A DNA stretch of 64,000 nucleotides, from assembly GCA_964600785.1 (NCBI GenBank), contig CAZRKH010000082.1, forward strand, positions 8,858-72,857, read 5' to 3'. This document shows positions 30,956-54,125 of this stretch, in pieces. Numbering within the stretch: the first letter of the stretch is position 1; every line of letters starts with the position of its first letter. Origin of the DNA: an uncultured Chitinophagaceae bacterium (GTDB lineage Bacteria; Planctomycetota; Planctomycetia; Pirellulales; UBA1268). The translations under genes and the position numbers were made by a program. The notes under the pieces are model-generated. The model did not search any database and was not told the origin of the DNA. It saw only the letters and a list, made by a program, of their open reading frames with translations.

Positions 30956-32155
30956 CTACTCGATGATCTTGGTGACCACGCCGGAGCCGACCGTGCGGCC
31001 GCCCTCACGAATCGCAAAACGGACGCCGTCGTCCATGGCGATGGGCACCATCAACTCCACCTCCATCTTCACGTTGTCACCAGGCGAGACCATTTCCACG
31101 CCGCCGAGCAGCTTCGTCGTTCCGGTCACGTCGGTGGTCCGGAAGTAGAACTGCGGCCGGTAGCCGGCGAAGAAGGGCGTGTGGCGGCCCCCCTCCTCCT
31201 TGGCGAGCACGTAGACCTCGCACTCAAACTTCTTGTGGGGCTTGATCGAGCCCGGCTTGGCGAGAACCTGCCCGCGTTCGATCTCGTCGCGGGCCACACC
31301 GCGGAGCAGACAGCCCACGTTGTCGCCGGCCTGACCCGACTCGAGGATCTTCTTGAACATCTCGACGCCGGTGACGGTCGTCTTCTCGATCTTGTCGGAC
31401 AGGCCGATGATCTCGACCTCGTCACCGACCTTCACCACACCCCGCTCGATACGCCCGGTGGCCACGGTGCCGCGGCCCTCGATCGAGAAAACGTCTTCGA
31501 TCGCCATCAGGAAGGGCTTGTCGATCTCGCGGGCCGGCTCGGGGATGTAGCTGTCGATCGCGTCGAGCAGCTCGCCGATGCACTTGCTCGCCTCCGGATC
31601 GGCAGGGCTGTCGTAGGCCGGCTTGCCCGCCCCCCGAATGATCGGAATGTCGTCGCCCGGGAAGCCATACTTGGTGAGCAGTTCGCGGATTTCCATCTCG
31701 ACGAGGTCGAGCAGCTCTTCGTCGTCGACAAGGTCGACCTTGTTGAGGAAGACGACCAGAGCCGGAACGCCCACCTGCCGGGCGAGCAGGATGTGCTCCC
31801 GCGTCTGCGGCATCGGGCCGTCGGTGGCGCTGACCACCAGGATCGCCCCGTCCATCTGGGCGGCGCCGGTGATCATGTTCTTGATGAAGTCGGCGTGGCC
31901 GGGGCAGTCGATGTGGGCGTAGTGCCGCTTGTCGGTCTCGTATTCCACGTGACTGACCGCGATCGTCACCGTCTTCGTGTCGTCGCGGACCGTGCCACCC
32001 TTGGCGATGTCGGCGTAGCTCTTGGCCACGGCGAGGTCCTTGGCGGCCTGCACGGCCACCAGGGCGCCTGTGAGCGTGGTCTTCCCGTGGTCGATGTGGC
32101 CGATCGTGCCGACATTGACGTGGGGCTTGGTCCTCTCAAACGTATCCTTTGCCAT
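30956..32155 (-). CDS. tuf: Elongation factor Tu
   Basis: [39 protein letters not shown]. Confidence 0.99.
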
Positions 32156-32323
32156 GCTTTTTCCTCGGTTCTCTTCGCAGGGATTGCAGGACTTCGCCTG
32201 CTTCGGGTTTCGATCAACGGTCGTGACAGTCCGCCGGCGGAAACGCTCCGCCGGCTGTTCGGTTGGTTGTCTGGTCGGCCGCCTGGCGGCGGGTGCGGTT
32301 GGTTGTCGTGCCGGCCGCCGGAG

Positions 32324-32396
<73 letters not shown>

Positions 32397-32542
32397 AGCC
32401 GGGCGCACGGGACGGCCTCGGGTGTGGTTTGTGTGGTGTGTAGTGTCGTCGATTGTCTCGTCGTGTGTCTGCGTCGGTTGCGGAATTGCTCGTGTGTGCG
32501 GCTGGCGGTGAGGGGGGTGAGGAGGCAAGAGCGGCAGTCGAC

Positions 32543-32613
32543 AGCGGGTGAAGGGAATCGAACCCTCGTCTTTAGCTTGGAAGGCTATTGCTCTACCATT
32601 GAGCTACACCCGC
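32543..32613 (-). tRNA. tRNA-Gly (TCC)
   Basis: GCGGGTGTAGCTCAATGGTAGAGC...CTTCCAA...GTTCGATTCCCTTCACCCGCT. Confidence 0.97.
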
Positions 32614-32680
32614 GGTGGGTCGCCAACTCCGGCTCTCACAGCCCCGCCGCCTGCGGCCGGTGCTTCGCGGGGGCCGAGAG

Positions 32681-32763
32681 TGGGGAGTGCAGGATTCGAA
32701 CCTGCGAAGGCAGAAGCCATCAGATTTACAGTCTGACCCCTTTGACCGCTCGGGAAACTCCCC
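32681..32763 (-). tRNA. tRNA-Tyr (GTA)
   Basis: GGGGAGTTTCCCGAGCGGTCAAAGGG...CTGTAAA...long variable arm...GTTCGAATCCTGCACTCCCCA. Confidence 0.97.
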
Positions 32764-32961
32764 TGTTCGGATGTAGTGCCCTGCCGGACGCCCGGCATGA
32801 CGGGTATTCAGTTTGCTCACTCCGGAGCCGGGCCGGCTCCATCAAGATCGAATCCGCCGTCCTCCCGGAAATGACCACGACACGAGCCCGTTGGTTTGTA
32901 CGAAAATCCGGACGCTGTCGCGCCACCGCCGGCAGTGGGCAGCGGGAAGGCCTGACGAGTG

Positions 32962-33034
32962 AGCTAGCGGCGGGATTTGAACCCGCAACCTGCTGATTAC
33001 AAATCAGCTGCTCTGCCAGTTGAGCTACGCTAGC
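32962..33034 (-). tRNA. tRNA-Thr (TGT)
   Basis: GCTAGCGTAGCTCAACTGGCAGAGC...TTTGTAA...GTTCAAATCCCGCCGCTAGCT. Confidence 0.97.
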
Positions 33035-33136
33035 GACCGGTTTGGCCCGCGAACCGGTCAAGTGTACGGATTCGCCTTCCCTATGCAACCGGGGAGACCG
33101 ACGCGGCCTCCGGGCCGGCTCCGCGGCCGCGGAGTC

Positions 33137-34354
33137 TCAGCGGAAGCTGACCTCCACCATCGAGAAGTCGTCGCTGAAGTCATCGCGTGCCGAGAGTTCG
33201 CGAATGTGGCCAAGGAGCCGGTCCATTCGGTTTTCCTGCGAGTTTTCCTGGGGTTTTTCCCGGTTCTCGAGCGGCCCGGCGAGGGTCGCCACAAACTCGT
33301 CGAAGGTCCACATTGAGCCGTCGGGGCGGCTCACCTCGAAGGCCCCGTCGCTATAGATAAAGAGCTTTGCCCCGGGGGGCACCACCACCTCCGCCGCCTC
33401 GAACTCGAGCCCCTCGACCGCCCCGATCAGGGGGCCGTCCGAGGTCAGCAGCTCAGGCTCGGCCCCATCGCCGGCGAGGAACACCGCCGGAGGATGGCCG
33501 CCTCCGGACCAGCGGAGCGTTCGGCTGGGGGCATCGTAAACCCCATACCAGATCGTGAAGAACATGTCGTTTTGCCGCTCCATCGGGAAGGCCCGATTGA
33601 GTGCTTCGAGCACCCCGCCGGGGTCGTGGAAGTCGGTCTGGGGCAGGGCCTCGCTCCGCAGGGCATTGAAAGCCGACACGCTCAACAGCGCCGCCCGCAC
33701 GCCGTGGCCGCAGACATCGAGCAGATAGAAGGCGGTGCGGTGCTCGTCGAGGGCGTGGTAGCCGAAGATGTCGCCGCCGAGTTCCGCCGATGGGATGAAT
33801 CGCCAGTCGGCGGTTGCCCCGCCGAGCGTCTGCGGCGGTGGCAGCAGCGATTGCACGTAGTTCGCCGCCGAAGCGAGGTCATCGGCGAGCGTCCGCTGGC
33901 TGGCCTGGAGGGCCTCGAAGGCCGCGTTTCGCTCGACGAGGGCCACATACCCACGGGAGTGGTAGCGGATGCGGGCGATCAGTTCCAGCGGGTCGGGCAG
34001 CTTCACGATGTAGTCGTTGGCCCCCAGGGCAAAGGCCTCGGCCTTGACCGTCGGCTCTTCCCGGGCCGAGAGCACGATGATCGGCACGTCCTGCAGCCGC
34101 TCGTTGGCCCGAAACTCGCGAACCAGATCAAGTCCATCGACGTCCGGCATCACAAGGTCTTGCAGGATCACCGTCGGCCCCAACGCCTCGGCGGCCTCCA
34201 GGGCGGCCTTGGCGTCGTCGCAGAAGTGGAATTCGATCCCCTCCTCCGCGGCCACCATGCGGCGGACCGCCTCACCGATGATCCGCTGGTCATCGACGAG
34301 CAGCACGCGGGCTCGGTCGAGCGATGTTGGTGAGGCGGAGGAGGTGGATGGCAT
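33137..34354 (-). CDS. Response regulator receiver fused to a PP2C/SpoIIE phosphatase
   Basis: VLLVDD, LQDLVMP, DYIVK; LGGD, DVCGHG, YSDG, SDD. Confidence 0.92.
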   Translation of the reverse strand: MPSTSSASPTSLDRARVLLVDDQRIIGEAVRRMVAAEEGIEFHFCDDAKAALEAAEALGPTVILQDLVMPDVDGLDLVREFRANERLQDVPIIVLSAREEPTVKAEAFALGANDYIVKLPDPLELIARIRYHSRGYVALVERNAAFEALQASQRTLADDLASAANYVQSLLPPPQTLGGATADWRFIPSAELGGDIFGYHALDEHRTAFYLLDVCGHGVRAALLSVSAFNALRSEALPQTDFHDPGGVLEALNRAFPMERQNDMFFTIWYGVYDAPSRTLRWSGGGHPPAVFLAGDGAEPELLTSDGPLIGAVEGLEFEAAEVVVPPGAKLFIYSDGAFEVSRPDGSMWTFDEFVATLAGPLENREKPQENSQENRMDRLLGHIRELSARDDFSDDFSMVEVSFR

Positions 34355-34449
34355 CCTGGCTGCCCGGATTTCCGCGGGGGGTCTTCCGGCGAACTGCCGG
34401 AACGAACTCCCTCGACCGGAGGATTCTACTGACGGGTCGCAGGCCGCGG

Positions 34450-34902
34450 CTACCGCGGCAGGCTTCGCTTCGGGCGGCAGGCGGGCTCGGCCGCCAGCGA
34501 AAACACGATCACCTCCTCACCGGTGACGGTCGAGATGTCGTGGTGCACGCTGACAAGCGAAACGCCGGCCGCCTCACGCACGATGCACTCCAGGCGGAAG
34601 CGTCCGATGGCCACCATGTGGCTGCGAACCTGCTTGAGCAGGGCGCGGCCGTTGGTCTCGTCGCCGGCGTGACCATTGCCGTTGTGGCTCGGGTCGGCCG
34701 GTGCGTCTGCCGCGTTGGCGGGCCGTGCATGCGGGACAAGCAGCTGTCGTTCGGCGGCCGAGAGGGCGCCTTGGAGCCGCACGACCAGCAGCGTGCCGAG
34801 CAAATGGGAACGGATGTCCTGGGGGCCGCGACCGATAAATTCCTGATGGAACTTCGAGATGCCGTCGCAGACCGCCGCCTCGATCTCACCTTGGGATTTC
34901 AT
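34450..34902 (-). CDS. DUF2294 (MpsC-like) family protein
   Basis: SQGEIEAA..GRGPQDIR..LSAAERQL..GRALLKQVR..HHDISTVTGEEVIVFSL. Confidence 0.88.
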   Translation of the reverse strand: MKSQGEIEAAVCDGISKFHQEFIGRGPQDIRSHLLGTLLVVRLQGALSAAERQLLVPHARPANAADAPADPSHNGNGHAGDETNGRALLKQVRSHMVAIGRFRLECIVREAAGVSLVSVHHDISTVTGEEVIVFSLAAEPACRPKRSLPR

Positions 34903-34970
34903 GCACCACCTTCGGAAAGTGTTCCTGGGGCTTGCGGGGGAGAGCTTGGGAAGGGAAGCAGATTCGGCAG

Positions 34971-35002
34971 ATGCCGCCGGGGCCCGATGGCCCCGGCGGC
35001 AT
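34971..35002. other. Perfect 14-bp-stem hairpin between csrA and DUF2294
   Basis: ATGCCGCCGGGGCC-CGAT-GGCCCCGGCGGCAT; no U-tract. Confidence 0.8.
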
Positions 35003-35030
35003 GCAAGCAGTCGTCCACATCTGCCTCGAC

Positions 35031-35264
35031 TCAGCGTCGCAGTACGCCGCCGGTCGCAGCCTTCCGCGGCTCGGGAGCCGGCTGGCCGTTGCGGATGCGA
35101 TCCCACACCTCGCGGCGATGGATCGGCATCTTGTTGTCCGCCTCGAAGCCGAGCCGCACGCGGCCGCCTTCGATTTCCAGGATCGTGATCTCGAGCACGA
35201 CCTCGAGGTCTTCGGCGCGGCCGATGACCACGCTCTCTCGGTTCTTCCGGGTCAGCACCAGCAT
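35031..35264 (-). CDS. csrA: Carbon storage regulator CsrA/RsmA
   Basis: MLVLTRK..ESVVIG...VRLGFEA...IHRREV. Confidence 0.93.
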   Translation of the reverse strand: MLVLTRKNRESVVIGRAEDLEVVLEITILEIEGGRVRLGFEADNKMPIHRREVWDRIRNGQPAPEPRKAATGGVLRR

Positions 35265-35310
35265 TGGGTACCTCGGTTCCTATGGGTCATCGAGTCCTTC
35301 GGGAAAGAGT

Positions 35311-35817
35311 TCAGCTGCTTGCGGCACCGGTGCCGCCCGCTCCTTGGACACGCACGCCCTCGGCATGCATGTGTGCATCGACCGGCACACCGAGCAGCGG
35401 CAGGCCCCTGCCGAGCAGGAACAGCTCCACCGTCGGTGCGGTCGTGAATGTTTTGAGCACGCTGTGGGTCGTGCCATCGACATGGGCGATGCCGCCGCGG
35501 AGTTCCACGCCCGCTGAATCGCGGAGATGGCTGCGAAAGGCATCGAAGGAATTCTCGAAGAGATAGCGGTGAAAATCCTCGATCTTGCCGAGGCCGCCAT
35601 CGGTATCGGCGAGGTCTGCTTCGAGTGGTGAAAATCGCTCGTGCAGGGTGACCACCAGGGAGGACCCGCTGGCCACGACCGTCACGCTCACCGGCGACCG
35701 TCCGGTGAGCAGGTGTTCGAATGTTCCCGCGGCCTGCGCGACACATCGGGCAATCCGTTGATTCATCGGGTTGCGGTCGGCAGGTTTTCGGCCGGCCTTT
35801 TCGGTTCTCGGTGGCAT
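35311..35817 (-). CDS. Divergent DUF2294-like protein
   Basis: TGRSPVSVTVV..LVVTLH..SPLEADLA..IEDFHRYLF pattern; start 35817 or 35766 (the ORF-track start lies inside the terminator). Confidence 0.7.
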   Translation of the reverse strand: MPPRTEKAGRKPADRNPMNQRIARCVAQAAGTFEHLLTGRSPVSVTVVASGSSLVVTLHERFSPLEADLADTDGGLGKIEDFHRYLFENSFDAFRSHLRDSAGVELRGGIAHVDGTTHSVLKTFTTAPTVELFLLGRGLPLLGVPVDAHMHAEGVRVQGAGGTGAASS

Positions 35818-35883
35818 CGTGGCTCCAAACGGTTCGGGGGCTGGGGTGAATCGCAACGTCTTCGTCGATCGCGGGAATCGAAC

Positions 35884-36002
35884 AACAAAAAAAGCCGACG
35901 GGAGTGGTTGCCCGGAGGCACACACTCACGCCGGCTTACGCTGCGATGGACCCTCCGGCCGGCTGGCCGAACTGCCCCTCGACTCGTCTTCCGTCAGGAG
36001 TT
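35884..36002 (-). promoter_or_regulatory. Candidate attenuator/riboswitch leader RNA, copy A
   Basis: CTCC..CGGAAGACG...CGTAAGCCGGCGTGAG...CGTCGGCTTTTTTTGTTG; same blocks as 49914-50037. Confidence 0.75.
35887..35937 (-). terminator. Intrinsic terminator in the leader of the DUF2294-csrA operon
   Basis: AAGCCGGCG/CGTCGGCTT, GAGTG/CACTC and TGCC/GGCA stems followed by U7. Confidence 0.85.
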
Positions 36003-36336
36003 CGTTCCGTGTCGCTTTGAGTCAGCCGACCGCAGCAAGGCGGTTGTCATCAGCAACGCGACGGCGGCGATAATAACCCGGAAAGATGGGCAACGCAAGC
36101 AGGCGGGGGAGCCTGCGTGGATTGTGCGGTTTGCTGCTGAAGGCCGTGGTTGCGGATGCGGGCCGGACAGTTGTGCAAAGTCGGCGTGACCTGCGCAGGC
36201 GGAACTCCGAGCCGTTCGGTCAAGGCGACCGGCTCGCCAACCCGAAGCAAATCGCCAGAGGCAACACCCCCCACATAGAGGGGTTTCTACAACGAGGCGT
36301 GTCGTGCCGGCCGTTCTCAACAGCAGGAGCCCACCC

Positions 36337-36771
36337 ATGCCACGCAGCCAGGAGCCGACGCCTCCCGCGGAGAATGGCCGCCACCGCAGCCAGGGCGAGA
36401 TCGAGGCCGCAATCTGCGACGTCGTCTCCCGCTTCCAGCAGGAATACATGGGCCGCGGACCAAGGGATGTCCGCACCCATCTCGTCGACAACAGGCTCTT
36501 TGTCCACATGCAGGGGGTGCTCACCGCCGCCGAGCAGCGACTGATGGACTCGCATGCCAACGGCAACGGCCGGGGGGCGGAAATCCTCAAGGCTTTTCGC
36601 AGCCATCTTGTCGCCGCGGGCCGTCCTTTGCTCGAGAAACTCGTCGAGAGCGTGACGGGTTCCCAGCCGATCAACGTGCACCATGACATCAGCGCCGTGA
36701 CGGGCGAGGAGGTGATCGTGTTCACGCTCTCATCGCCGCCGGCCTGCAGAGACCGGCGGCGTCGGGGCTGA
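36337..36771 (+). CDS. DUF2294 (MpsC-like) family protein
   Basis: SQGEIEAAICD..YMGRGPRDVR..LTAAEQRL..HHDISAVTGEEVIVFTL; AGGAG RBS; paralog of 34450-34902. Confidence 0.88.
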   Translation: MPRSQEPTPPAENGRHRSQGEIEAAICDVVSRFQQEYMGRGPRDVRTHLVDNRLFVHMQGVLTAAEQRLMDSHANGNGRGAEILKAFRSHLVAAGRPLLEKLVESVTGSQPINVHHDISAVTGEEVIVFTLSSPPACRDRRRRG

Positions 36772-37041
36772 GGCCCGCAGGTTCTTGTGAACGATCCCAA
36801 TCGGAAGCCGATGGCGTTCGGCTTCTCTGGCCGGCGGCGGCGTCCGGGGGTGGTTGCGGCACTCTCGGTCCCGTCGCCGGCCCTCTTTGTCGCTCCCGGT
36901 TTGCCCGCGACAATCGGTGAAACCACGGTCCTCGTCCGTGGCCGGGAATCGCCGGTTGCAACCCTGGCCGCCGCGTCGTTGAATCGATGGCGATCCGCCG
37001 TGAACAACGCGGCCGTCCTTCGCCCCCCGGACGCTCCTCCC

Positions 37042-39506
37042 GTGTCGCAGCCTGCCGCCCCGCCGCCGGCCACACCCGTCGACTTCGAGGGGCTCGGGGT
37101 GTTTTACATGGGTGAGCGGGTCGATCCTGACTCGGGTCGTGGCCTCGCCGAGCCGGTGCTCCTCAAGGCCAAGCGGCTGTGCACCCATGCGGTCTGCGTG
37201 GGCATGACCGGCAGCGGCAAGACGGGCCTCCTGGTGGGCCTGCTCGAGGAGGCCGCCCTCGACGGCATCCCCGCGGTGGTGATCGACCCCAAGGGCGACC
37301 TCGGCAGTCTGCTGCTCTCCTTTCCCGACCTCGCCCCGGAAAGCTTCCGGCCATGGGTCGATCCCGATGCGGCTCGCCGCGAAGGACTCTCGGTGGAGGA
37401 GCTCGCCGGGCAGACGGCCGCCCGCTGGAGCGAGGGCCTGGCCGCCTCCGGACAGTCGGCCGAACGCATCGCCCGTCTCCGGCAAAGCGTCGAGATGGCG
37501 ATCTACACCCCCGGCAGCCGGGCCGGCCGACCGCTGGCGATGCTCGGCAGCCTCGACCCGCCGACCGAGGCGGTCCGCAACGACCCGGAGCGGCTCCGCG
37601 AGCGGCTCGACTCGGTGGCTTCGGGCATTCTGGCCCTGGCCGGCATCGACGCCGAACCGGGCCGCAGCCGCGAGCATGTGCTGCTGTGCACCGTGATCGA
37701 CGCACTCTGGAAGACGGGCCGTCCGCTGAGCCTTGGCGAACTGATTCGGGCCCTGCCGGCGCCGCCGGTGGAGCGGGTCGGCTTCTTTGAACTGGAGCAC
37801 TTCTACCCCGCCGCCGACCGGTTCGAATTGGCCGGCCGGCTGAATTTGGTCGCCGCCTCGCCCGGTTTTGAGGCCCGGCTCGAGGGGGAGCCGGCCGACA
37901 TTGGGCGGCTGCTGTGGACCCCCGCGGGCCGGCCGCGGGTGAGTATTGTCTCGATCGCCCATCTCTCCGACGCCGAACGGATGGCGTTTGTCACGCTGCT
38001 CGCCGGTCAGGCCGTCTCCTGGATGCGGTCGCAGCGGGGCACCTCGTCGCTGCGGGCGATCTTCATGATGGACGAGGTCTTCGGCTACCTGCCGCCCTCG
38101 GCCAACCCGCCGAGCAAACTGCCGATGCTGACGCTGCTCAAGCAGGCCCGAGCCTTCGGCCTGGGCGTCGTACTGGCCACGCAGAATCCGGTCGACCTCG
38201 ACTACAAGGGCCTCTCCAACGCCGGCACCTGGTTTCTGGGCCGGCTGCAGACCGCGCGAGACAAGGCCCGCGTGGTCGACGGGCTCGAAGGGGCCGCGGC
38301 AGCCGCCGGCGACACGCTCGACCGCGGCCGGCTCGACCGGCTGCTCTCGGGACTCGGCAGTCGCACCTTCCTGCTGCACAGCGTGCACGACGATGACGAG
38401 ACCGTCTTCCGCACCCGCTGGACGCTCTCCTACCTGCGGGGACCGCTGGCCCGCGAGGAGATTGCCAGGCTCACCCCCAGGGCCGAGCCGGCTGCCGCAG
38501 CCGAGCCGCCCGCGACGGGCAATGATCGTCCGGCTGGCTCGTCCGGCGGGCCGCGGCCGGTCCTGCCGCCGGGAGTGCGGGAGGTCTTTCTCGCCCCCGC
38601 CGAGCCTCCGATTGGGGCGGTCCTCTACCGCCCTGCCCTCTATGGCCGGGGAAGGATTCGCTTCGCGACCGCCGACGGGGCAGACGGCGGAATCGACATC
38701 AGCCGGCAGTTCGACCTGCTCGCCCCGGCCCCCGAGCAGGCCGCCGACGCCTGGCGGAATGCGGCGGCCCTCGACGAGGGGCCGATGCTGGAGCCTTCCG
38801 CCCGAGAGGGCGACTTCGCTTCGCTGCCTTCGATCCTTGCCGGGCCCAAGGGGCAGGCCTCGCTTGCTACAAGCTTGGCGACGCACCTGGCCCGCACCGG
38901 CCGCCTGCGGCTGTGGAGGTCGGAGCATGCCTCGTCGCTCTCGCGGCCGGGAGAATCCGAAACCGACTATCGCCTGCGGATCGCCCAGGAGGTGCGGGAG
39001 GCCCGCGATGCGGCCATCGAGAAACTACGTGAACGTCATGCGACACAACTCGACCGGCTCGCCGTGAGGATCGACAAGGCCCGGCAGAAGCTCGATCGCG
39101 AACGATCGGCGGCCCGGGGCGGCAGCGTTGCTTCGTGGGTCTCGGTGGGGGTGGCGATTTACGACGTGCTCCGCGGACGTGGTGGCAGCCGCGGGCTCGA
39201 CAAGGTCTCGACCTCGGTGAAGTCGGCCACCAAGGCCTCGCAGCAGCAGGCTGAGGTGACGGCGATGGAGGAGAACATCGACTCGCTCATCGAAGAATCG
39301 GCCCTGCTGCGGGAGGCGATCGAGCGGGAAGTCCGCGGCATCCGCGACGCGATCGATCCCCTCACGATGCCCCTCGAGCCGGTCGAGATCACGCCCCGCA
39401 GTGGCGACGTGGCCGTCGAGGAGGTGGCCATCGCCTGGGTGCCGGATGACCCTGCCGCGGTGATCGCGAGGCTTCGCGAACGCGACACACCGGGCGGACA
39501 GGTCTG

Positions 39507-39507
<1 letters not shown>
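37042..39507 (+). CDS. HerA/FtsK-like ATPase (DUF87/DUF853 type) with a C-terminal coiled coil
   Basis: VGMTGSGKT, VIDPKGD, MDEVFG, LATQNP; start uncertain. Confidence 0.85.
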
Positions 39508-49913: not shown

Positions 49914-50037
49914 GGCTCCGAGATTGTTTCGGAAGACGGATTGTCGGGTCGCCCGCCTGCGGAGCCCCGACACGACGTAGGCCGGCGTGAGACGTTCTCC
50001 CCACTGGGGCGGGCTCTTGCGGCGGCCTTTTTTGTTG
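49914..50037 (+). promoter_or_regulatory. Candidate attenuator/riboswitch leader RNA, copy B
   Basis: CTCC..CGGAAGACG (49930-49938)...CGTAGGCCGGCGTGAG...CGGCCTTTTTTGTTG. Confidence 0.75.
49979..50033 (+). terminator. Intrinsic terminator in the leader of the PEP-CTERM gene
   Basis: AGGCCG/CGGCCT, CGTGAGA/TCTTGCG and CCCC/GGGG stems followed by U6. Confidence 0.8.
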
Positions 50038-50144: not shown

Positions 50145-50900
50145 ATGAGTTTCAGCGATCTCGTCGATTGTCTCATAAGCCGGCGTCGGCCTGTTGGCCG
50201 CTTCGGCCGAGCCGTGGCTTTTCTCGCCAGCCTGCTCTGCGTCTTGTCATGTGCCTGGCGGGCCGGCCAGGCGATCGCCGCTCCGGTGTTCACCGTCACC
50301 GGCGGCACCACGGTGCTCACGTCGCTGGAAACCTTTCTCTGGGTGACTCCTCGTTTCAACGGGGATGTTCTGCTCTGGGAGCAGGGCGTGATCGGTCTCT
50401 TGGAGCCGGGCAAGGTCTCAATCGAGTATGTCGGGAAGGAAGCCTTCTATGCCGACAACATCTTCCGCTGGGACGGGATTGACATCTTCTCCACCGGTCC
50501 CTCGTCGCCGTTGATCGCAGGCCAGACGGCGGCCACGCCCTTCCCGCCGTTGCCGCTGGCGACCTACGAGGTGCCGGGCGTCGTGCCGGCCGGGCCGCTG
50601 CCGCTGAGCTTCTTCATTTCGGAAACCTCCAAGGCGGTGCCCAATGACGGCAACCCCGACATCGCCTACTGGCCGCTCCCCACCGACATCAGCAGCAATC
50701 CCTACGACCTCGGCTCGGTGGTCTACGTGATGCTCGATGATGCAGACCCGGTCGATACCGACCACGACGACATGATCGTCCAGCTCTCGGTGGTCACGCC
50801 GCCGGTGCCCGAGCCGAGGTCACTTGGCCTGGCCGTGGTGGGAATCCTGCCGCTCGCCGGCTGGATGCTCCACCGACGGCGGGGCCGGCTCAGCGGTTGA
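50145..50900 (+). CDS. PEP-CTERM exosortase-sorted surface protein
   Basis: Signal peptide; C-terminal VPEP + TM + RRRGR; DDADPVDTDHDDMIV acidic motif; start 50103 or 50145. Confidence 0.85.
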   Translation: MSFSDLVDCLISRRRPVGRFGRAVAFLASLLCVLSCAWRAGQAIAAPVFTVTGGTTVLTSLETFLWVTPRFNGDVLLWEQGVIGLLEPGKVSIEYVGKEAFYADNIFRWDGIDIFSTGPSSPLIAGQTAATPFPPLPLATYEVPGVVPAGPLPLSFFISETSKAVPNDGNPDIAYWPLPTDISSNPYDLGSVVYVMLDDADPVDTDHDDMIVQLSVVTPPVPEPRSLGLAVVGILPLAGWMLHRRRGRLSG

Positions 50901-52023
50901 CATGCGCGACCTTCGCCGGCGGGAAGCCGTTGAACCAGGTCGAGCTGGCCGCCGAATAGGCGCCGATATTCTCGCTGTAGAGATAGTCGTCGAGTTGGAG
51001 ATCGGGCAGCGGCTCGGCTAGGCCGATCGTGTCGAGGGCGTCGCAGGTCGGCCCGAACACGGCCGAGGGCTCGGTGGCCCCTCGCTTGAAGCTTTTCACC
51101 GGGTAGTTGCAATGGTCGAAAATCACGCCGGAATAGGTGTGGTAGACGCCGTCGTCGATGTAGTAGCACCGCTTCCCTTCGCGAACCGCTTTCCCGATGA
51201 TCTTCGAGACCGCCGTGCCGGCTGATGCCACGAGGAACCGGCCCGGCTCGGCGAGGATTTCGATCTCCGGCGGAAAGAGCCGGTCGAGCTCGTGATTGAT
51301 CCGCCCGGCCAGCTCCGCAAACTTCGGCACGCTGGCGTCGTAGGCCGCGGGAAAGCCGCCGCCGATGTCGAGCAGCTCGAGTGAAAAGCCGCGCGACTTC
51401 GCCTCGGCGAAGATGCCGGCCGAGAGATGGATCGCCTGGATGAAGTTTTCAGGGTTTGTGCATTGGCTGCCGACGTGAAAGGAAAGCCCCTCCACCGTGA
51501 GCCCCTGCTCGTGGGCGAAGGCGATCAGGTCGACCGCCTCCCCCGGCAGGGCGCCGAACTTGCTCGAGAGTTCGACCATTGACCCGGTGTTGGGCACCCG
51601 CAGCCGCAGGGCAAGGCCGGCATGCGGCGCGTGGCGGGCGATCTTCCGGACCTCCTCCGCGTTGTCGTAGGTGACCAGCGGCTTGTAGCGGTCGAGTTCC
51701 CGGAGGGTCTCCACCGGCTTGATCGGGTTGGCGTAGATGATCTTGTCCCAGATGAAGTCCTGCCGTTGCTTCGCCGGGAGGTGTTCGATGAAACGGTGGA
51801 CGGTGTGGAACTCCTCCATGCTCGCCACATCAAAGCTGCCGCCGAGTTCGTAGAAGGTCTGCACGATCGCTGCGTCGGAGTTGACCTTGACCGCGTAGTA
51901 GGCCTGCACGCGGGGAAAGTGCCGCCGGAAGAGCCGGTAGTTTTTCCGCAGTTCGGCGTGATCGACGACAAACAGCGGCGTGCCGTGTTCGCGGGCGAGG
52001 GCGAGGAGCGTTTTCTTGTTCAT
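50890..52023 (-). CDS. Ornithine decarboxylase (fold-type III PLP enzyme)
   Basis: YAVK, FDVAS, SFHVGSQ, LDIGGGF, EPGRF, GPTCD. Confidence 0.9.
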   Translation of the reverse strand: MNKKTLLALAREHGTPLFVVDHAELRKNYRLFRRHFPRVQAYYAVKVNSDAAIVQTFYELGGSFDVASMEEFHTVHRFIEHLPAKQRQDFIWDKIIYANPIKPVETLRELDRYKPLVTYDNAEEVRKIARHAPHAGLALRLRVPNTGSMVELSSKFGALPGEAVDLIAFAHEQGLTVEGLSFHVGSQCTNPENFIQAIHLSAGIFAEAKSRGFSLELLDIGGGFPAAYDASVPKFAELAGRINHELDRLFPPEIEILAEPGRFLVASAGTAVSKIIGKAVREGKRCYYIDDGVYHTYSGVIFDHCNYPVKSFKRGATEPSAVFGPTCDALDTIGLAEPLPDLQLDDYLYSENIGAYSAASSTWFNGFPPAKVAHVNR

Positions 52024-52093
52024 GACGGAGAATTCTAGCTGCTCGTGGAAAAAGCCCTCCTGGTCCTTCTCCGGAATTTCCCAGCCAGTCCGG

Positions 52094-53554
52094 TCAGTCG
52101 TCGCCGTCGGTGATCAGGAAATTCTTGAACTGCCAGGGATCCCCGAGATCGAACGAGGGGGCCGCGTAGCCCGGGAAGGCCGAGCGGCAGCCCTCCAGAG
52201 GCGTCCAGTCGCTGGCGGTCGAGATGAACTTCCCGAGGTAGGGCTTGGCGATCTCGAGCACGTAGTCGTGGGGCAGGTCGTCGGGCACCAACAGGCCGCG
52301 GTCGGGGTGCTCGATCATCCACATGCAGCAGGCCACCACCGAGATCGCCACCTGCATCGTGGTCGCATTCTGATGGGGTACCAGCCGCCGCGACTCCTCG
52401 ATCGAAAGATCGGATCCGCACCACCAGCTCGTCAGCGGATGGCCCATGATCAGGGCCCCGAGGATGTCGGAGCCGCTGATGATGTCGTCGTACATGATCC
52501 GCTCCCGCGGCGGCATCTTGTAGTCGTAGCCACGCAGTTCGTGGAGCGAGGCGATCGCCGCATCGCAGGGGCAGTAGGCATAGTGCATCGTTGGCCGGTA
52601 GACCGCTCGGCCCTGCTCCCAGACCGTGAGATGGTCGGTGATCGTGAAGGCCTCGCCGTGGCGAACCACCATGCCCAGGATCGGGTAGTCGGGCACCCAG
52701 CTCGAGACGAGGGTGTTGATCCCCATCCTTGCCAGACAGATCTGGTTGCGAGGGCCCGACTCATGCTCGTAGGCGAGCGGCGGCAGCTCTTTTTCGTGGG
52801 TTCCCCAGCCGAGCTCGGCGGTGGTCGTGCCCTCCTCGCGGAAGCCCTCCACGCTCCAGGTGTTGACGAACTCGTCGACCTCCTTGGGACGGTTGGAGAT
52901 CTGGGTGTCGCGTTCACTGCAGTGAATCACCTTCACTCCCAGCTCGCAGGCAAGGTGGTTGAAGCTGCGACTGGCGGCATGGGCGGCGATCCGTTCGGCC
53001 GCCTCGCCGCTGACCTTCTTTTCGGCCAGGCAGGCCTCGGCAATGTCGAGCAGGCCCTGCTTGGTGAAGTGGCTGATCAGACCGGGGTTGGCCCCGTGCT
53101 CCACCACGCAGGTCGCCCCGGGGATCTCCCAGCTCTCGCGGAGCTTCCGCAGGGCCATGTGTCGCCAGTAGAGCGTGAGGTGGGAGGGATGGGTGTCTGG
53201 CGGGTGGTTGTAGGGATCCCAGAGTTCGACCGAGGTGTTGATGTACATCACGCCGTGGTCGTGGCACCAGGCGATGATCTCGCAGGCGTCGATATTCCAG
53301 GCGAGGTCGATCACGAGATCACCGGCGGAAACCTGCCGGGAGAGAATCGAATCGAGGCTCGCGGGGGTGATCTTGTCTTCGAGGAAGTTCACCCCGCGTT
53401 CGATCCAGGGGGCCAGGGCCGGTCGGTCAGGCTTGAAGTCGATGATCGCGACGCGGGCCGGATCGATGCGAATATGGTCGAGCAGGATGGGGAGGGTGCA
53501 GCGGGCGACGGAGCCGAAGCCAATGAGAAAAATACGGTGGTCGTAGGTGAGCAT
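52094..53554 (-). CDS. hss: Homospermidine synthase
   Basis: IGFGSV, GANPGLIS, FVNTWSVEG, YRPTMHYAY, NATTMQV. Confidence 0.92.
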   Translation of the reverse strand: MLTYDHRIFLIGFGSVARCTLPILLDHIRIDPARVAIIDFKPDRPALAPWIERGVNFLEDKITPASLDSILSRQVSAGDLVIDLAWNIDACEIIAWCHDHGVMYINTSVELWDPYNHPPDTHPSHLTLYWRHMALRKLRESWEIPGATCVVEHGANPGLISHFTKQGLLDIAEACLAEKKVSGEAAERIAAHAASRSFNHLACELGVKVIHCSERDTQISNRPKEVDEFVNTWSVEGFREEGTTTAELGWGTHEKELPPLAYEHESGPRNQICLARMGINTLVSSWVPDYPILGMVVRHGEAFTITDHLTVWEQGRAVYRPTMHYAYCPCDAAIASLHELRGYDYKMPPRERIMYDDIISGSDILGALIMGHPLTSWWCGSDLSIEESRRLVPHQNATTMQVAISVVACCMWMIEHPDRGLLVPDDLPHDYVLEIAKPYLGKFISTASDWTPLEGCRSAFPGYAAPSFDLGDPWQFKNFLITDGDD

Positions 53555-53744
53555 CAGGCCTGCTTGCCGGGGAGAGGAGCGGGGGCGGCCGCGGGAGAGA
53601 CGCGGCTGAAACGAGCCCGAACCTTCGGGCAAGAACGGAAGTATATCGGTCTGTGTCGGCGGTTCCACCGCGGCGGCTGCGGTGTGGTATTGTGCCGCGT
53701 CGGGCGATCGGAGCCTTGGCGGACAAAAGCCGGGATTTGCAGCG

Positions 53745-54125
53745 ATGTCGGGCATCACCCATTGGATTTGGCTGGCGGCGGCGGGAGCCGTCGGTGTGCT
53801 CTGCCGTGCCGGGGTGACGGCGGGAATGGTGCGGCTGTGCGGCGAGGCCTTCCCCTGGGGGCTGACGGCGGTCAATCTGGCCGGGTCGCTCGCCTTCGGG
53901 CTGATCGTGGCGGCCACACCGCTGCCCGGTGGTCTTCCGGAGGGCTTCGAGAAGATCCTGCTGGTGGGGCTGCTCGGCGGCTTCACTACCTTCTCGAGCT
54001 TCGCCTTCGACGCGGTGCGGCTCTTCGAGATGGGCCGTCCGGCAGCGGCCCTGGCGCTCGTGGCGGCCAACAATCTCGGCGGGTTTGCCGCCGCCTGGGC
54101 CGGCCTGCGGCTGGGGGGTGGGTAG
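53745..54125 (+). CDS. crcB: Fluoride channel CrcB/Fluc
   Basis: GAVGVLCR, FPWG..AVNLAGS, GLLGGFTTFSSF. Confidence 0.9.
   Translation: MSGITHWIWLAAAGAVGVLCRAGVTAGMVRLCGEAFPWGLTAVNLAGSLAFGLIVAATPLPGGLPEGFEKILLVGLLGGFTTFSSFAFDAVRLFEMGRPAAALALVAANNLGGFAAAWAGLRLGGG

Follow-up and report, generated by a model that had tools for sequence, protein, structure and literature searches.

What does a csrA gene do in the midst of three genes of the family DUF2294 (MpsC, PF10057), none of them beside the MpsAB (DabAB) transporter from which the family takes its name? We address this for a cluster in a 64,000-nucleotide (nt) stretch (the window) of contig C82 (CAZRKH010000082.1) of a planctomycete assembly (GCA_964600785.1; 2.83 Mb, 92.17% complete). 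A preliminary description, made from the letters alone, had placed a DUF2294-csrA-DUF2294 row on the minus strand behind a leader with a terminator, a third DUF2294 gene divergently transcribed, and a co-oriented receiver-PP2C gene after the row. Pfam and a covariance model of the leader confirm this layout (Table 1); the assembly has no PF10057 match besides the three DUF2294 genes, here D1, D2 and D3. We consider the cluster to be a copy of a Planctomycetota-wide post-transcriptional control module in which DUF2294-controlled antitermination is combined with CsrA feedback, an explanation that we place just short of an even chance and above its competitors. The post-transcriptional module proposed earlier is supported in part: the adjacency of DUF2294 and csrA recurs across Planctomycetota and the leader covaries.

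Gene order was compared in two samples. The first comprises 41 genomes (that of the window, G000, and 40 relatives), with 20 regions around PF10057 matches compared with the window's four proteins. For the second, a narrow D2-type alignment gave 478 matching stretches, from which we took the best 80 loci (72 assemblies, several planctomycete families). PF10057 is present in 17 of the 41 genomes. Seven genomes of the window's family (G012, G013, G014, G016, G018, G021, G023) share the row D2-csrA-D1, and in each of them D3 lies upstream of D2 on the other strand, directly adjacent in five of the seven. Where the contig extends beyond D1, as it does in four of these relatives (G012, G016, G018, G021), D1 is in every case followed by an ortholog of the receiver-PP2C gene. 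There are 15 D2-type genes among the 41 genomes, nine with csrA immediately 3′. Among the best 80 loci, csrA lies on the same strand as D2 within 200 nt in 57 and within 2.5 kb in 62, a D3-type gene lies divergently within 900 nt in 42, and an adjacent csrA and a divergent D3 occur together in 26. A neighborhood survey had been suggested as a check on this association, and by these counts the linkage is conserved and not a product of chance. The distance from D2 stop to csrA start in the 57 loci is −7 nt in 12, 1-2 nt in 5, 12-17 nt in 28 and 22-44 nt in 8, with 4 outliers; this spacing fits co-translation, that is, predicted translational coupling. In G014 (L014:4168-6120) and G018 (L016:4285-6192) the leader-D2 unit and D3 are parted by an inserted gene for an S8 subtilase.

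The leader is the second conserved component. A run of at least five T at a fixed distance upstream of D2 is found in 43 of 48 intergenic regions, which is unusual in DNA of 55-70% G+C. An alignment of 42 regions defines a 114-position element composed of an unpaired, nearly invariant CGGA.GAC box, a rod hairpin with highly conserved internal loops, two unpaired A, a covarying terminator hairpin of 15-17 base pairs (bp), and a U-run; the leader has one invariant GGA. In the window these parts correspond to an unpaired CGGA box (35993-35986), the rod hairpin (35987-35938), the terminator hairpin (35935-35894) and seven U (35893-35887). The RNAalifold consensus has 32 pairs, 16 of them with compensatory changes, and the covariation score observed for the rod and its extension was reached by none of 500 shuffles. 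A candidate 6-bp helix joining columns 8-13 with 74-79 (the region of the 5′ box with the terminator base) is 94.4% paired; if formed, it would lengthen the rod and preclude the terminator. Since the single-sequence fold of the whole leader has a z-score of only −1.52, the structure rests on covariation and not on folding energy. The leader terminator escaped a simple terminator scan, and an Rfam search of positions 32000-38000 at E ≤ 1 returned only tRNAs and chance-level matches, so that the leader matches no Rfam family. Taken together, the leader is a conserved, covarying RNA, and the fold predicted for it by default has a strong intrinsic terminator at its end. The −35 and −10 hexamers of a promoter-like site upstream of it align with conserved −35-like and −10-like hexamers of related loci; a strict promoter scan did not flag the site (36098-36070).

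A covariance model (R1) built from the alignment of D2-upstream regions was used to search for further copies. The window's assembly contains two convincing ones (35885-36001 and 49922-50035). The leader lies 45-181 nt 5′ of D2 in 70 of the best 80 D2-type loci, and 137 copies were found in 89 of 101 sources. It occurs in 15 of the 41 genomes, 14 of which also have PF10057, and 23 of the 24 genomes that lack PF10057 lack the leader as well. For the copies that do not precede D2 there are 51 candidate downstream genes, 27 with Pfam matches (two of the 27 are D2 genes again). The types include ferritin-like, CsbD, BON, PRC-barrel, YfdX, Transgly_assoc, DUF3309, fasciclin, fatty-acid desaturase, ice-binding PEP-CTERM, histidine kinase, receiver, FloA and CsrA proteins. 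Extra copies within the family of the window stand before genes for PEP-CTERM proteins or for secreted proteins of very large size. The gene behind the second copy in the window encodes a protein that, judged by eye, has a signal-peptide-like N-terminus and a C-terminus made up of a VPEP motif, a hydrophobic segment and an Arg-rich end; it has no Pfam match. Going by these annotations, the leader-preceded genes are concerned with stress, the envelope and signaling, and not with carbon uptake.

All three DUF2294 proteins score above the PF10057 gathering cut-off of 23 bits (Table 1). D2 does so marginally, and D2-type relatives reach 79-84 bits. D1 and D3 share 50% identity; a low-complexity insert in D1 opens a gap of 20 columns in their alignment, and D1 is a family-specific duplicate of D3. 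D2 and D3 share 24% identity over just 78 residues (E 0.01). The earlier view of two close paralogs and one divergent copy stands, but the divergent type is D2, upstream of csrA, and not the divergently transcribed D3. The paralogs had also been credited with a common NGNG insert; relative to relatives from other families, D3 has two extra residues and D1 has about 20 low-complexity residues. The D2-type profile matches 1472 cluster representatives at E ≤ 0.001 and 191 at E ≤ 1e-30.

In the AlphaFold models of D2 and D3, a helix and two strands are followed by two or three helices and a final pair of strands. The D3 model has a predicted local distance difference test score (pLDDT) of 90. For D2 the score is 81 overall, above 90 in the core and below 50 for residues 119-151, a disordered C-terminal tail. 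D3-type proteins are about neutral with a basic C-terminal tail. A Pfam scan of D1, D2 and D3 found PF10057 only, with no FliW, ANTAR, CAT/PRD, HutP, PyrR or TRAP domain, and a sequence search of the PDB with DUF2294 gave nothing below E 0.09.

In one relative (G034, L030:1013-1849), DUF2294 is fused behind a receiver domain, and the gene adjoins one for a CheB-CheR-PAS-HWE histidine kinase. Both domains are present in 89 of the best 120 database matches to this fusion, and the fusions are about 250-299 residues long. Because DUF2294 here occupies the output-domain place of response regulators, it appears to behave as an output domain, which favors a role as effector over one as sensor.

The csrA gene encodes a CsrA of a separate kind. 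The preliminary description had noted an extra loop, and the Pfam alignment bears this out as an insert of six residues after the second strand and before the third (residues 1-58 on Pfam positions 1-52). The protein is well above the PF02599 cut-off of 27 bits, has the lowest Pfam score among the genome's seven CsrA copies, and falls below the NCBIfam cut-offs for canonical CsrA (56 vs 73 for NF002469, 51 vs 70.1 for TIGR00202). As scored by these profiles, it is a divergent paralog and not the canonical equivalog. The insert is present in all D2-linked CsrAs examined and missing from the six other paralogs of the genome and from two CsrAs near D3-type genes in G034. In the subfamily alignment the N-terminal strand and the HR.E arginine, which have an RNA-binding role in E. 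coli CsrA, are invariant or nearly so. The window CsrA is basic (pI 10.2), and two ribosome-binding sites that contain GGA lie just upstream of its gene. The seven CsrA paralogs of this 2.8-Mb genome compare with two or three in five congeneric genomes, and some relatives within the order have up to 13.

Two candidate lines of evidence for contact between D2 and CsrA were set aside. A C-terminal WSG motif of D2 was considered as a contact specific to CsrA and rejected, since its conservation is the same whether or not csrA is present. Apparent MpsC-CsrA fusion proteins were not counted as Rosetta-stone evidence: for one such reading frame (L105:3983-4618), 11 of the best 120 matches carry both domains (P0122-P0131, P0160), but several are frame-shifted and the junction falls at an A-run in the 7-nt D2/csrA overlap, so they are probably products of assembly indels.

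A response to CO2/bicarbonate or Na+ had been proposed, and the relatives lend it indirect support. D3 is followed by dabA in three of the seven syntenic genomes (G012, G016, G021; E about 1e-233), and the order in G012 is D3, DabA, two Proton_antipo_M genes and a HerA-like gene. A row of LysR, DUF2294, Proton_antipo_M (dabB) and DabA without a leader occurs in G035. In the window the HerA-like gene directly follows D3, at the place of dabA-dabB in the relatives, and DabA was found neither in the window nor in the whole assembly at its 92.17% completeness; the reported absence of an MpsAB transporter nearby is accordingly upheld. None of the best 80 D2-type loci has DabA within 4 kb of D2 by a DabA profile built from three sequences, and many relatives have DabA and no PF10057. 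In Staphylococcus aureus, an mpsC deletion is reported to have had no growth phenotype and mpsAB alone to have complemented, so that mpsC is dispensable for MpsAB function (PMC6689103). With the dabA-dabB genes of the sister genomes missing after D3 in the window genome, the module has no tie to the uptake of inorganic carbon there, and the carbon link is secondary; the genes behind the leaders are likewise not those of carbon uptake.

Model R1 has no match between D3 and dabA in the relatives. The spacer from D3 stop to dabA start holds a conserved element of about 170 nt, GC-rich and rich in hairpins (L012:6004-6267 in G012, L017:6197-6490 in G021), which is possibly another type of MpsC-linked leader.

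We propose the following mechanism. Transcription from the promoter-like site would yield a leader of about 114 nt that ends by default in the terminator. The DUF2294 proteins would be trans-acting effectors that decide between termination and read-through at the leaders, in the simplest mode by stabilizing the rod hairpin together with its 6-bp extension, which would sequester the terminator base. Feedback may come from the CsrA paralog, which would bind the unpaired CGGA box as well as those ribosome-binding sites of the csrA operon that contain GGA. Phosphorylation input could set DUF2294 activity, through the receiver-PP2C protein here and through receiver-DUF2294 fusions elsewhere. The position of csrA behind D2 would serve translational coupling; in the window's family, D1 and the receiver-PP2C gene come next. 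A more far-reaching version, to which we give somewhat less credence than to this mechanism, is that DUF2294 is a hitherto undescribed RNA-acting effector domain, alone or behind receivers, that with its dedicated CsrA switches identical leaders across the phylum and runs a planctomycete general-stress and envelope response by termination under Ser/Thr or Asp phosphorylation.

Several observations weigh against antitermination by DUF2294 with CsrA feedback. The candidate 6-bp antiterminator helix lacks double-sided changes, and it is at its weakest in the family to which the window belongs. A Foldseek search of the PDB with the D2 and D3 models gave no match at E ≤ 0.001, and no known RNA-binding fold was recognized. 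In a wide VIA-align comparison the best Z was 6.9 for D3 and 7.7 for D2, with FtsK, phage tail terminators, TRAPP Bet3, RbfA and V4R among the matches; we discounted these as homologues, as they share merely a common alpha/beta arrangement. D2-type proteins are acidic, with a median pI of 5.55. Among the 70 loci with leader and D2, csrA is present in 52 and absent from 18, so that it is not obligatory. A 95% complete genome (G029) has a leader (L120:3388-3508) before a fatty-acid desaturase gene and no PF10057 match; G024 and G035 have PF10057 without a leader, as does G005, where the match is partial. The distribution is patchy, as the other five congeneric genomes lack the cluster and have at most one partial PF10057 match. 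Finally, the best-80 sample is biased, being the loci closest to a CsrA-linked query, and kin among them are not independent.

Some of the same facts suit other explanations. CsrA could be the RNA-binding regulator and D2 a protein antagonist like FliW: CsrA on the CGGA box would block the antiterminator, D2 made in a fixed ratio would titrate CsrA, and D3 and D1 would modulate D2. The overlapping or abutting of D2 and csrA, the restriction of the CsrA insert to D2-linked copies, the pairing of an acidic protein with a basic one, the unpaired state of the sole invariant leader GGA and the near-invariant HR.E arginine all accord with it. It has more difficulty with the 18 loci that have leader and D2 alone, and with G020, G026 and G036, which have the leader, D2 and D3 and no adjacent csrA. 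CsrA dimers usually bridge two GGA sites and the leader conserves one, the C-terminal motif of D2 is indifferent to csrA, and the fusions that might have joined the two proteins look like frameshift artefacts. We regard this alternative as unlikely, albeit the strongest of the rivals. A self-contained riboswitch for an ion or metabolite, with DUF2294, CsrA and the other downstream genes as mere cargo, seems more doubtful again. The conserved internal loops of the rod, the many unrelated genes behind the leader and the leader of G029 speak for it, but 14 of 15 leader genomes carry PF10057, D2 stands first after the leader in 70 of 80 loci and D3 sits divergently at a fixed place beside it, as is usual for a regulator and its target, and no Rfam family matches.

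A role for DUF2294 as accessory to the DabAB/MpsAB carbon pump or as its regulator, with the cluster as a remnant after loss of dab, we judge improbable. The family name comes from S. aureus mpsABC, and the D3-dabA order in G012, G016 and G021 (with two Proton_antipo_M genes in G012) and the row in G035 agree with a pump partner. Against this, the DabA profile has no match within 4 kb in any of the 80 D2-type loci, many relatives have DabA without PF10057, the window genome keeps three DUF2294 genes without DabA, and loss of mpsC in S. aureus is reported to have had no growth phenotype, mpsAB alone being sufficient for complementation (PMC6689103). Neighbors that met by chance and share no function would account for the patchy distribution, even inside the genus; order, orientation and spacing recur in several planctomycete families, which contradicts this, and we give it next to no weight. 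We retain DUF2294-controlled antitermination with CsrA feedback as the best explanation.

Table 1. Features of the DUF2294-csrA cluster and of the second leader locus, in window coordinates; ORF, open reading frame.
Feature	Position	Strand	Evidence	Remark
Receiver + PP2C (SpoIIE-type) phosphatase	33137-34354	minus	Pfam Response_reg 80.4 bits, SpoIIE 145.5 bits	Closes the co-oriented row
D1, canonical-type DUF2294/MpsC	34450-34902	minus	Pfam PF10057 86.7 bits, match in two stretches around the insert	ORF 34450-35106; likely start ATG 34902
GC hairpin, 12 bp perfect, without U-run	34964-35021	minus	RNA folding	In the csrA/D1 spacer
CsrA paralog	35031-35264	minus	Pfam PF02599 63.9 bits, full-length match	
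D2, divergent-type DUF2294	35311-35817	minus	Pfam MpsC (PF10057) 26.1 bits	First gene after the leader; ORF 35311-35925; likely start ATG 35817 (GGAG 5 nt upstream) or 35766
Leader RNA	35885-36001	minus	Covariance model R1, 97.8 bits, E 3.5e-27	
Promoter-like site	−35 36098-36093, 17-nt spacer, −10 36075-36070	minus	Read from sequence	For the leader-D2-csrA-D1 transcript
D3, canonical-type DUF2294/MpsC	36337-36771	plus	Pfam PF10057 106.6 bits	Divergent from D2; ORF 36304-36771; likely start ATG 36337
HerA/DUF87-like P-loop ATPase	36787-39507	plus	Pfam DUF87 27.4 bits, TrwB_AAD_bind 28.9 bits	Directly after D3
Second, weaker leader copy	49922-50035	plus	Model R1, 43 bits, E 5.9e-11	
Secreted PEP-CTERM-like protein	50145-50900	plus	ORF; termini judged by eye	After the second leader

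The GC hairpin between csrA and D1 is not conserved, and the spacer varies from 8 to 237 nt across the seven relatives. The best NCBIfam match of the receiver-PP2C protein is RssB, at 113.8 against a cut-off of 700. The window also contains an exosortase (EpsH) gene (651-1760) in addition to the leader-preceded PEP-CTERM-like gene. Convergent with the latter, genes for an Orn/DAP/Arg decarboxylase-like and a saccharopine-dehydrogenase-like protein adjoin on the minus strand (50890-54073), possibly for polyamine synthesis.

To our knowledge, almost no regulatory RNA or global stress circuit has been characterized in planctomycetes, and a shared leader with its own set of proteins would give them such a circuit, together with RNA and protein reagents that are defined well enough for assays of binding and termination. 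As a family, DUF2294/MpsC is widespread but an orphan, and its sole genetic test, in S. aureus, is reported to have given no phenotype. The family now gains a precise and testable context: a fixed place behind and beside a conserved terminator leader, a dedicated CsrA subfamily, and receiver fusions that mark it as a putative output domain. If the proposal is true, a CsrA paralog has been recruited into a protein-RNA switch other than the sponge-RNA and FliW modes.

The system would work like protein-dependent attenuation, with components not described in print; a literature search that did not extend to subscription journals found no publication on a DUF2294-CsrA link or on the leader. Protein-dependent attenuation is known from HutP, LicT/BglG/SacY, PyrR and TRAP. 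With these it shares a leader with an intrinsic terminator and a small protein, here a putative trans-acting one, encoded in or beside the operon, but there is no sequence or fold match to them and the predicted effector here sits behind its own leader and would be autoregulated. The ANTAR response regulators (AmiR, EutV, NasR/NasT), which act on RNA with paired hexaloops, likewise have an effector domain that stands alone or behind a receiver, and there too many copies of one terminator leader define a regulon. DUF2294 lacks an ANTAR domain and has a different predicted fold, and the RNA here consists of a rod hairpin and a CGGA box.

On the CsrA side, E. coli CsrA is autoregulated and promotes termination (csrA and pgaA leaders), and the window resembles it in having GGA in an unpaired leader segment and at the ribosome-binding site of csrA itself. 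The paralog differs in its 6-residue insert and its link to DUF2294, and no CsrB-like sponge RNA was seen. The FliW-CsrA partner switch of Bacillus subtilis and Campylobacter, in which a small protein acts on CsrA, is similar in that a small protein is encoded beside csrA, with possible protein contact, and in that a CsrA paralog is dedicated to one circuit. It is dissimilar in that D1, D2 and D3 match PF10057 and not FliW, the context is not flagellar, a terminator leader is part of the unit, and csrA is missing from a quarter of the loci. The comparison with MpsABC/DabAB of S. aureus separates the window assembly, which has no DabA, from a system in which mpsC is reported to be dispensable for MpsAB (PMC6689103); what the two have in common is the PF10057 family itself and, in three sister genomes, dabA-dabB after D3.

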